Virus record (IMG/VR): IMGVR_UViG_2519899561_000027
DNA: 9,158 nt
Reading direction: 5' to 3' (one strand)
DNA from: a virus
Lineage: Duplodnaviria > Heunggongvirae > Uroviricota > Caudoviricetes
Shown: in pieces, positions 1-3,000 of the stretch
Layout: each line of letters starts with the position of its first letter
How positions within the stretch are numbered: position 1 is the stretch's first letter
Position numbers: made by a program

Positions 1-3000
1 GCGGCTCATGTCCTGCACATCATGCAGACAATGGTCCGCCGGAATGATGTCGTTATATTTACAGGCGACACCGCCCGGTGTCACCGTACTGCGACGCGCC
101 AGCTGCTTAATGCGCGGGTCCGGACGGTCATATGTCTCCGGCAGCGGAAGGCCTTCACCATATGCCATGCTGTTTGACTGCCCTGCCAGAACCACAACAA
201 AGTAATACCCGGGGTCGCTGGTGGCGCTGATTACTGCACCTTCTCCACCTGTCGGCTTCACCACAACAGGTGTGCTCACATCACCTTCTGCGACAATCGC
301 CTGAATAAGTGCTGCGCCATCATCCGTATACGAAGAAAACGGCCCACCATATGGTTGCCATCCTTCACGAATTTTTTGCGCAAGTGCATCAGCAAGGTCT
401 GACGGCGACGCCGCCCTGACAACATCATAATGTTTAAATGTCATTATTCCTCCCGGCCGGGATAGTGTATTAAATCAGATATGGAGTGGGCTGTAGTCCG
501 GAAGCCTGAATGACACACGGGGACTACAGCCCAAGAAATGAAAAAAGGCCACGCAGTTGCGCAGCCTGATAAACCCTGGTTAAAATCCACACGATAACAA
601 CACAACAATATCAGTATCTCATGCTATTGCCCGAACCCATTCGGGCATTTTTTTACCCATAAAAAAGCCCCTCCGGAGAGGGGCATGTTTGCATGCACAT
701 TCTTTTTCTTGCATGGTGCCGGGTGCCTCCCGGTGAATTCAGTACCAGCACCTGAATCCGCGATTACCCCATATACCTGGTTGCTGATTGCCCCTCCGCA
801 CAGGGGGATTCACCATGCCAGTTTCTTTTAACAAACTCCCCGCAAACCAGACAACAGTCAACCGCCTGAATTGTGAGACATTTAAAAAAAGGCCCGCAAA
901 AGCGAGCCAGGGAAAATAAGTGTGGCGCGTTGTACTGGATTCGAACCAGCGACCTGGCGATTATGCGTCGCTCGCTCTCACCACTGAGCTAAAGGGCCGG
1001 GCGCAGGATAATAACGGTACGTAACTAATCCTGCAATATCATCCGTTCTGACTGACTAAATCCTGTACTTCCCTGACCGTCTGCTCAAAACGTTCAGTCT
1101 CCAGCTCAACGCCAGTTGCACGACGCCCCAGCGCCATCGCGGCTTTGACTGTCGAACCCGACCCCATGAAGAAATCTGCAACCAGGTCACCCGGACGACT
1201 GCTCGCACTGATTATCTGCTGCAGCATTTCTGCCGGTTTTTCGCACGGATGTTTCCCGGGATAGTACTGCACCGGTTTATGCGTCCACACATCCGTGTAC
1301 GGCACCTGCGCCGTCACGCCAAAATACCGCCGCAGATGTTTATATTCACTCTGCAGTTCCGCATACTGCCGGTTCAGTGAAGTATACGTCTCCAGCAGCT
1401 GGTGGTGGGGCTTTTCCAGTTCACCGCGCTGATGCTTCTCTTCTGCCACCCGGGCAAACAGCGCCTGTAATTTCAGATAATCGCTTTCGTTCGGCAGCAG
1501 CCACTGACCGGCACTGAACCAGTGCGACACCATGTTTTTCTTTCCTGTGGCATCTGCAATCTGTTTTGCCGTTATCCCCAGGACAGCGCGCGCATCACGA
1601 AAGTAAGAAATCAGCGGAGCCATCACATGCTGTTTCAGTGCCCTGCCCTTCGCCTCATACCCGGCATCTTTCGGACGATACGGCCCCTGATAATGTTCCG
1701 CGAACAGAATGCGCTCTGTGGCGGGGAAATACGCCCTCAGGCTTTCCTTGTTGCACCCGTTCCAGCGTCCGGACGGCTTCGCCCAGATAATATGGTTCAG
1801 CACACTGAAGCGTTCACGCATCATGATTTCAATGTCAGATGCCAGGCGATGGCCACAGAACAGGTAAAGACTTCCGGCAGGTTTCAGCACCCGCCAGAAC
1901 TGCGCCAGACACTGGTCCAGCCACTTCAGGTAATCATCGTCGCCCTTCCACTGGTTATCCCAGCCCTCAGGCTTCACTTTAAAGTACGGCGGGTCCGTGA
2001 CTATCAGGTCAACAGAATTTTCGGGTAACGACCGGATAAATTCCAGGCAGTCAGCGTTGATCAACTCACAACTGGATATTTTTACAGTGTTAAACATGGA
2101 TCATTAAGCCTGTCTCTGATAGGCTCATTCTGCTTTTGCGCAAAGCAGTGGGCCTGAGGTTTGCTTGTGATCCAGACGCATGAGCAGATGGCTGGTGAGT
2201 GCCCCTAACACCCACCAGCCGCCCATTTACCACAAATAAAAAAGCCTTCAGGACTGAAGGCGTCTGTAACAACCGAACTGATAGTCTGCCAGACCCGCCA
2301 TAACAAGCTGGGTCAGTATTAACTGGCAGCGTTCGCGTGAAAGGTAAGTATTCTGCGCAATCTCCCCGACTGTCGCCGGTTCGGTGACGCTTAATTCATT
2401 AAACACTGCTCTGGCGGTTTCTGTCATATCCTGCTGTTTTAGCATGCTTTTTTCCCTTTTCCGGTTAACGTGACACACCAATAACTCTTGTCAAAAAAGC
2501 CAGCAAGCTGAAAGACCGGTATTCACCGCCACCAGCGCGTTTACTGTACTGACGCGATTTCAGTCATAAAAAACCCGCCAGGCGGCGGGGTGTAAAAAAT
2601 CTTCTAACGTCAGGCATAAAACGCCCATCGTTAGGGCAAATTTACCACAGATTCGGGAAAAATCAACAAAGCTATCTGGTCACCTTTTTCAGTTGTTGTT
2701 CTGCCCATGCTTCTTCAATATCAAACTGCACCACCAGCGTATCGTAAAAACGTTTAACTGTTTTTTTCCATGTATCAAGAGATATGGCATCGGTTACATT
2801 ACATATGGCATTAAATGCCTCCGTTGAAGGTAATCTTTCATAGCCACGCCCACCACAACGCTGACAGTTTCTGAAAACCGGCACACCCTGTTTTTCCGAC
2901 TCTTCACGATGAATGGCAACACCGCGCCCACGACAATCTTTACAGGCAGTGGATACCTCTCCCTTCCCTCCACACTCCGGACAGGCAACTTTTACCACCT

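Follow-up and report, generated by a model that had tools for sequence, protein, structure and literature searches.

A predicted Q-dependent late-gene regulatory cassette beside a long-form Q gene in a lambdoid prophage of Escherichia coli

We analyzed a 9,158-nucleotide stretch of Caudoviricetes DNA (IMG/VR record IMGVR_UViG_2519899561_000027; hereafter the window), which is 100% identical to Escherichia coli strain E2863, and found that positions 2566-2666 of its minus strand very probably form the cassette (pR', qut, and tR') that places the late genes of a lambdoid E. coli prophage under Q control, cognate to the 273-residue Q antiterminator encoded directly upstream. We assign this reading a probability of about 0.9. 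The cassette belongs to a common and well-understood kind of element, here in a specificity variant not characterised so far, and in itself it confirms textbook biology; the testable points that it adds are a candidate Q-binding element (QBE) in the promoter spacer and a covarying stem at the 5' end of the predicted transcript. The features of the cassette and its surroundings are listed in Table 1.

Table 1. Features of the predicted late-gene regulatory cassette and of the neighboring DNA (positions in the window)
Feature	Position	Strand	Basis or details
Q antiterminator gene, 273 residues, long-form Q-lambda family	2672-3493	-	Pfam PF03589, E 5.3e-52
Hexamer TTGATT (-35)	2661-2666	-	sequence reading; position equals that of TTGACT in lambda
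Promoter spacer, 16 nt	2645-2660	-	sequence reading
Candidate QBE TTTCCCGAATCTG	2648-2660	-	co-variation with Q clade
Extended -10, TGgTAAATT	2639-2647	-	TG 2647-2646 at -15/-14; hexamer TAAATT 2644-2639 as in lambda pR'
TTGCCC, counterpart of the -35-like TTGACT of lambda, 1 bp upstream of the pause element	2634-2639	-	positional homology
TGCCCT, 6-nt gap between -10 and pause hexamer	2633-2638	-	sequence reading
Sigma70-dependent pause element AACGAT, -10-like, non-template strand (putative)	2627-2632	-	same as lambda +1 to +6
GGG, discriminator-like and G-rich upstream edge of the paused hybrid (putative)	2624-2626	-	same as lambda; kept in most relatives
Predicted pause, +16/+17 (U17 then G18; G8 ten bases upstream)	2616-2617	-	lambda analogy and elemental pause pattern
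Predicted 5'-terminal hairpin of the pR' transcript	2606-2632	-	outer AACG 2632-2629/CGUU 2609-2606; inner GGGCGU 2626-2621/AUGCCU 2617-2612
First intrinsic terminator, tR'-type	2566-2589	-	stem CCCGCC/GGCGGG 2589-2574, six G-C pairs, 4-nt loop GCCU, T6 2573-2568
Winged-helix TrmB-like open reading frame (ORF), 65 residues, between the two terminators	2248-2445	-	Pfam TrmB, E 0.0013, below cut-off; PHROG 331, E 1.7e-37, no assigned function
Second intrinsic terminator	2236-2261	-	stem 2261-2244, then T6; 330 nt beyond the first terminator
DNA methylase gene, first large gene of the predicted Q-dependent transcript	1039-2097	-	Pfam N6_N4_Mtase, E 7.7e-44
tRNA remnant	933-992	-	Rfam, 37 bits, sub-threshold-looking
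STnc100 small RNA (sRNA)	655-847	-	Rfam, 144.5 bits
AgvB, anti-GcvB sRNA	592-653	+	Rfam, 96.5 bits

Read from 2680 to 2560, the minus strand is ...AGATAG CTTTG TTGATT TTTCCCGAATCTGTGG TAAATT TGCCCT AACGAT GGGCGTTTTATGCCTGACGTTAGAAGATTTTTTACA CCCCGCCGCCTGGCGGG TTTTTTATG, and the string TTGATT-(16 nt)-TGgTAAATT-TGCCCT-AACGAT-GGG, reported in an earlier sequence-only reading of this DNA, is exact on that strand. The corresponding pR' sequence of lambda (NC_001416) is TTGACT TATTGAATAAAATTGGG TAAATT TGACTC AACGAT GGGTTAATTCGCTCGTTG. Direct comparison shows that the pattern TAAATT-N6-AACGATGGG is identical in letters and spacing in the two phages, with AACGATGGG at +1 to +9 in both, and the likeness to lambda pR' that the sequence-only reading had pointed out is thereby borne out by alignment. 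The 15 specified bases of this pattern match the window only once, with no mismatch, whereas 0.29 matches are expected even when three mismatches are allowed. Within AACGATGGG, the hexamer at +1 to +6 has its A2 and T6, and a G-rich run resembling a discriminator comes next; the distance of AACGATGGG from the -10 is that of lambda. At the site of the -35 hexamer, the relatives of the window have TTTACT, TTGCAA, or TTGACT. The -35 hexamer falls outside the span 2566-2657 first proposed for the promoter and terminator.

In lambda, AACGAT (+1 to +6) is the -10-like element causing the sigma70-dependent pause, and the GGG after it acts as a discriminator-like enhancer (PMC4005639). The context of G8, U17, and G18 in the window fits the elemental pause pattern, in which the G/C-rich segment also determines the pause position (PMC5001585), and by analogy the polymerase is predicted to pause near +16/+17. 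The degenerate TTGCCC located at the position of the lambda -35-like element could conceivably provide a landing site for sigma region 4 in the Q-loading complex. A role of the lambda element in this complex was reportedly described by Nickels et al. in 2002. The role of the lambda TTGACT in the Q-loading complex is also described in PMC9388147.

The GenBank record of P22 annotates P late, qut, and t late, and it gives the first A of AACGAT as the mapped 5' nucleotide of the late RNA. Because of the homology with the mapped starts of lambda and P22, the +1 is predicted at A2632, and the start near 2622 that had been proposed earlier should be moved about 10 nt upstream. The register of the 5' stem described below peaks at 2632 and thus gives independent support to this position. 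A palindrome, GCCC-TAACGAT-GGGC, surrounds the pause element at 2622-2638 on the minus strand and was flagged as terminator-like, with a GUUUUAU tail. We do not regard this hairpin (2638-2622) as terminating the pR' transcript, because +1 is located downstream of its 5' arm; it would be able to form only in read-through Q mRNA and not in pR' RNA. HK225, mEp460, and a Klebsiella phage have a similar CCC...GGG arrangement around the pause hexamer, whereas lambda and P22 lack it.

The gene located directly upstream on the same strand encodes a protein of the Q-lambda family, PF03589 (PMC9388147), and its stop codon, TAG at 2674-2672, lies 5 nt before the -35 hexamer. In a BLASTP comparison, the protein aligns end-to-end with lambda Q at 32% identity (E 4e-41) with a gap of 68 residues; it also matches the Q-lambda chain of PDB 7UBM (E 1.1e-41) and the PHROG families 127/25523, 'anti-termination protein Q-like'. 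An insert of about 68 residues, at Q residues ~114-181, brings a second pair of CxxC motifs, giving four CxxC motifs in total, and resembles the DnaJ zinc-finger domain at 29.8 bits, below cut-off. This implies a putative two-zinc 'arm' in place of the single zinc ribbon of lambda Q, which has 207 residues. The lambda Q arm contacts the QBE and sigma region 4, and the spacer here has 16 instead of 17 nt; hence, the geometry of Q at this promoter may differ from that in lambda. Long-form Q proteins also exist in HK225, ES18 (gp73), ST104 (gp23), Fels-1, mEp460, and Stx2c phages. The difference from lambda appears to be one of specificity class inside the Q-lambda family, not one between Q families.

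The lambda QBE sits in the spacer between the -35 and -10 elements and is read by a Q monomer (PMC9388147). The spacer of the window gives no in-register alignment with that of lambda, and the candidate QBE at the equivalent position, TTTCCCGAATCTG, is unrelated to the TTGAATAAAATTGGG region of lambda. We examined the sequence that follows the Q stop codon in 13 phages and in 80 bacterial genomes of many enterobacterial genera, the latter found by a search with an alignment of six Q sequences. Nearly all of the 13 + 80 loci show a -35, a spacer of 16-18 nt, a -10, a further 6-7 nt, a -10-like hexamer, usually GGG, and an intrinsic terminator. The hexamer is mostly AACGAT, with AACAGT, AACACT, AATGAT, AACAAT, AATAAT, GATGAT, AATCAT, and AAGGAT as the other forms.

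Of the 44 loci with a Q that shares 50% or more identity with that of the window, 32 have the spacer motif TTTCC[CG]GAA[AT]CTG, and the other 12 deviate from it by one to three bases; the motif is found in none of the 43 loci with a more distant Q. The distant loci carry other clade-specific spacers, including AAGTGGCGAT(A/T)TTTGTT, TTTTCAAAAAATATGG, AGTTGCCGTTTTTGTG, AATGACGAAAGTTAGAA, and the lambda/P22 type TTGAATAA(A/C)(A/G)TTGGG. The reverse test, in which IMG/VR was scanned for the 17-mer CTTTTCCSGAAWCTGTG and 80 loci were read, returned a Q of the same clade (48-62% identical) ending just upstream in 70 loci; five more were too short but had the full promoter context, and five were chance matches. 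Motif and Q clade co-vary in both directions, as is expected of a QBE, and TTTCCCGAATCTG is therefore likely the cognate QBE, to which the Q of the window would bind, of a distinct specificity class. The sequence-only reading had likewise suggested a different Q specificity class from the lack of relationship to the lambda spacer, and that suggestion gains force from the near invariance of the motif beside close Qs and its absence beside distant ones. TTTCCCGAATCTG gives the long two-zinc-ribbon branch of Q a defined candidate QBE, a natural specificity variant to set beside the Q-QBE structures of lambda.

Some loci show unusual pairings of Q and spacer. In Pectobacterium polonicum (locus L152), a long-form Q, 42% identical to that of the window, stands beside a lambda-type spacer, TTGAATAACATTGGG, and two Xenorhabdus loci (L142 and L144) combine TTGACA/TAAATT with a window-like spacer, TTTCCGAAAACTGGG. 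Such natural intermediates could help to map the Q residues that read given spacer bases.

Among the closest known relatives of the cassette are those of HK225, PHB10, Erwinia phiEt88, and prophages of Enterobacter, Kluyvera, Klebsiella, and Pantoea. They share the long-form, two-zinc-ribbon Q (50-63% identical), the spacer CTTTTCC(C/G)GAA(T/A)CTG, AACGAT (or AACACT/AACAGT) at an equal distance, and a terminator within +25 to +70. They differ in having TTTACT instead of TTGATT at the -35, and most have a shorter 5' hairpin, AACGA/UCGUU, with a 13-nt loop. This group is known from sequence records, of which those of HK225 and ES18 annotate only a terminator. In the case of P22, the start on the first A of AACGAT and the two-hairpin leader, about 60 nt compared with 65 nt in the window, are the same, but gp23 is a short lambda-like Q with a lambda-type spacer, TTGAATAAAGTTGGG, while the Q and spacer of the window belong to another clade. 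Compared with lambda, the window shares the PF03589 Q immediately upstream, the TTG at the -35-like site, the position of the QBE (a candidate in the window) between -35 and -10, a 5' stem (AACGA/UCGUU in lambda), and an intrinsic terminator before the late genes. It differs from lambda in the true extended -10 TG, and in the second terminator and small ORF that precede the first large gene.

With A2632 as +1, the first terminator has its hairpin at +44 to +59 and the last base of its U run at +65, so the terminated RNA is predicted to be about 65 nt long. The terminator noted earlier is present, but the distance of about 55 nt then given from the start becomes ~65 nt once the RNA is counted from A2632. 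The second terminator, also noted in that reading at about 330 nt further on, has the stem and T run listed in Table 1. Of 83 unique related loci, 79 have a terminator; its median end is at +65 (interquartile range 56-71), and in 65 of these loci it reaches no further than +90. The P22 terminator is annotated at +31 to +59. The first terminator is indeed much nearer to its promoter than that of lambda (+194), as had been pointed out, but this is not unusual: a short distance is the family norm, from which lambda departs, as do a few loci with a lambda-6S-like insert.

Taken in order, the elements suggest the following course. The sigma70 holoenzyme would initiate constitutively at A2632 from TTGATT-16-TGgTAAATT, as the homology to the mapped lambda and P22 starts indicates. 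Sigma region 2 would then re-bind the non-template AACGAT(GGG) at +1 to +9, where the elements are those of lambda, and a scrunched pause would follow near +16/+17. Without Q, transcription would end at the +44 to +59 hairpin with its U run; the RNA set free would be about 65 nt long and composed of a 5' hairpin and the terminator hairpin, and polymerases leaking through would be halted at the second terminator 330 nt on. With NusA, Q would bind the spacer motif TTTCCCGAATCTG and the paused complex and, forming a lambda-like nozzle on the RNA exit channel, would probably let the polymerase ignore both terminators as well as later ones. The Q-modified polymerase would transcribe the methylase gene, nanS-p, and the late genes, and also stx2AB in the sister phage Stx2_EH1910.

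Several points weigh against assigning this cassette to Q. The two promoter hexamers each match the consensus at only 4/6 positions and the spacer has 16 nt; a generic promoter scan, which requires at least 9/12, skips the site at 8/12. We do not take this omission as evidence against a promoter, since neither the homology nor the extended -10 TG is scored by that scan. The -35-like TTGCCC keeps only the TTG and is not conserved in many relatives. The anchoring of the related loci demanded A2 and T6 of the pause hexamer, and the invariance of these two bases is partly by construction. The QBE assignment follows from co-variation, without a base-by-base comparison to the contacts of the lambda QBE, and we infer the activity of the cassette (transcript, pause, and binding) from its sequence. 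In addition, the lysis and structural genes are located beyond the window, and the prophage may be defective.

For the predicted RNA of 65 nt, folding gives a 5' hairpin followed by the terminator hairpin, and the first nucleotides of this RNA are the copy of the pause element. The outer stem pairs +1 to +4 with +24 to +27, and the 32-nt 5' segment has a minimum free energy of -9.3 kcal/mol (z -2.6). In lambda, the stem AACGA/UCGUU joins +1 to +5 with +19 to +23 (L003 788-810). Across the family (loci L084-L176), the bases from +1 to +4/5 find their partners at about +19 to +28, and whenever the pause hexamer is altered, the partner is altered to match, which gives at least seven sequence classes. 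AACA(G) is paired with (Y)UGUU in ES18, ST104, phiEt88, Pantoea, and others; AAUGA with UCAUU in L148 and L150; GAUGA with UCAUC in L144; AAUA with UAUU in L147 and L168; AACAA with UUGUU in L152 and L160; AAUCA with UGAUU in Fels-1; and AAGGA with UUCUU in YeP2. Some of the G-U pairs in the stem are workable only on the sense RNA.

An alignment-free test searched for the exact Watson-Crick partner of the 4-mer starting at the first hexamer base within +15 to +30, with offsets and shuffles as controls. The partner is present in 59 of 74 unique leaders, compared with 4.5 ± 2.0 (maximum 12) in the shuffles, counts that overstate the significance since the leaders are related in sequence. When the 5' arm was offset by one base, 29-31 of 74 leaders retained a partner, and at offsets of 2-8 nt to either side 0-8 of 74 did so; the peak is exactly at +1. 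The Watson-Crick-only version was used, the G-U-permissive version of this test being uninformative. In a MAFFT alignment of 36 short-loop leaders, 88% of the cells are paired compared with 23-64% when the partner is slid, and the covariation score is 0.332 compared with at most 0.137 for slid partners, with 21 cells changed on both sides.

Other results weaken the case for a conserved stem. RNAalifold predicted no structure for the short-loop leaders, which counts against it, although a 5-bp A/U-rich stem is energetically marginal alone; for the window-type set, it gave a weak consensus structure. The stem is short and A/U-rich, and is absent in L098, L116, and L151. We tentatively propose, at somewhat under even odds, that leaders of the Q-lambda type carry a selected, previously undescribed 5' hairpin in which the RNA copy of the pause element forms the 5' arm; no description of it was found in the searchable literature, with the older 6S RNA papers outside reach, nor in Rfam. 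If so, six bases would carry two messages, one in the non-template DNA, recognized by sigma70, and one in the RNA, where they enter a stem starting exactly at +1. Because the stem begins at nucleotide 1, it could possibly shield the 5' end from RppH and RNase E. Alternatively, it could serve as a stopper preventing un-threading once the 5' end is through the Q nozzle, re-threading being impossible 'especially after RNA folding' (PMC9388147). Such an RNA-level constraint on the pause element could bear on the stability of the pR' leader or on the locking of Q on the transcript.

The leader also bears on a rival view that is compatible with Q-dependent antitermination, namely that the ~65-nt pR'-tR' RNA is the main product and acts in trans as an sRNA in lysogens, like StxS, with antitermination as the ancestral frame. 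In lambdoid lysogens, the pR' promoter is constitutively active; short pR'-tR' RNAs accumulate for lambda, 21, phi80, 82, and P22 and have also been described for Stx phages, and StxS binds Hfq and regulates rpoS and stx1 (PMC7547250). The predicted RNA of the window has hairpins at both ends and a U-rich stretch before the G+C-rich terminator and U tail, which would suit such a function. However, Rfam gives no family over 2566-2632, nor over the leaders of lambda, P22, ES18, Fels-1, and others, and the stretch linking the two hairpins, which is short, A/U-rich, and divergent among the relatives, leaves little room for a conserved seed. The Stx phages Sp5 and 933W share with the window the genome place (Q, pR', tR', tRNAs, and stx) and a pR' that is constitutive and terminated in lysogens. 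In contrast, their PR'-tR' distance is 258 nt, RNase E processing yields the 74-nt Hfq-binding StxS (PMC7547250), and their leader has no sequence similarity to that of the window. We regard an sRNA as the main product as unlikely.

The cassette stands at the meeting of two blocks of DNA with different histories of sharing. Among phage genomes, only Stx2_EH1910 (LC567834) matches the entire segment 2200-2720; its promoter module is identical through +43 and is located before the methylase gene, three tRNAs, and stx2AB, and the module is nearly identical in E. albertii. In 22 other Stx phages, the match begins at 2592-2588, at the base of the terminator stem, and runs downstream at 89-96% identity; the Q genes of these phages are different, and each has a promoter of its own. 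The reverse is seen in some E. coli genomes and in phage Evi, where the match is limited to the end of Q and the promoter region. Because each side of the sharp junction at ~2588-2592 is shared with a different set of phages, Q, pR', and the transcribed region to +43 appear to form one exchangeable specificity module, and the terminator-TrmB-methylase-tRNA-stx block, of which the window shares the terminator-TrmB-methylase part with many Stx2 phages, appears to form another.

The full block from the 3' end of Q to TrmB occurs at high identity in 1,066 of 5,426 complete E. coli genomes. The putative late promoter, its predicted start, and the first terminator can now be annotated in a prophage module that is present, whole or in part, in about one fifth of the complete E. 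coli genomes. Since the module precedes stx2AB in Stx2_EH1910, it would drive these genes there and hence represent one switch coupling prophage induction to the release of Shiga toxin 2.

This distribution also speaks to the idea that the cassette is an inactive relic, with Q unexpressed or the late genes decayed. Many lambdoid prophages of E. coli are defective, the late structural genes are not in the window, and a degenerate tRNA is found where Stx phages carry intact tRNA genes. On the other hand, the Q ORF is intact and of full length, as is every functional element of the cassette; the promoter sequence through +43 recurs unchanged in the genome of an Stx2a-converting phage and almost unchanged in E. 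albertii, and the block from Q to TrmB is kept at high identity in the many E. coli genomes counted above. A relic is improbable in our estimation. That there is no promoter at all, the hairpin at 2589-2566 merely ending the early Q-encoding transcript and the pR' likeness being coincidental, is hardly credible: the hexamers are weak by consensus scoring (8/12) and there is no shortage of terminator-like sites in the window (15 compared with 9.6 expected), but the 15-base core matches that of lambda pR' exactly and at the same spacing, dozens of genera keep the whole architecture after Q even as the flanks diverge, the complementarity register begins exactly at the predicted +1, and the P22 and lambda starts were mapped experimentally at the homologous base.

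The gene order at this early-late junction is a DUF968 protein, RusA, Q, the cassette, the 65-residue winged-helix ORF, the second terminator, the methylase gene, the decayed tRNA, STnc100 and AgvB, and a nanS-p-like ORF. The counterpart of the winged-helix ORF is annotated as a TrmB family regulator in phiP27, and in many Stx phages it occupies the same place upstream of the methylase gene, tRNAs, and stx2. Lying between the two terminators, it would need Q-modified or leak-through transcripts for its expression. The methylase gene and the nanS-p/YjhS-like ORF are located downstream on the same strand as the promoter. The same methylase gene order is found in Stx2_EH1910 and phiP27, with tRNAs and stx2 next; in Stx2_EH1910 the order is tRNAs, stx2AB, and yjhS. 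ARAGORN detected no tRNA in the window. AgvB, STnc100, and the tRNA remnant occupy the slot of the intact tRNAs and stx2AB of Stx2_EH1910, and the nanS-p/YjhS-like ORF past the sRNA genes runs off the left end of the window.

Two phages that share the downstream block have much smaller Q genes than the window, with their own promoters. In Stx2a_1447, a small Q (~113 residues) and two reversed ORFs precede the shared terminator. In phiP27, a small Q (~126 residues) is followed by TTGATT-16-TAAAAT, a GIY-YIG nuclease gene, and then the shared terminator; the nuclease insertion places the terminator ~1.35 kb from the late promoter (L002 1605-1700, 1700-2929). Just after the -10 of phiP27, there is a near-perfect 12-bp palindrome, CCATTCGCTTGC AATGG GCAAGTGAATGG.

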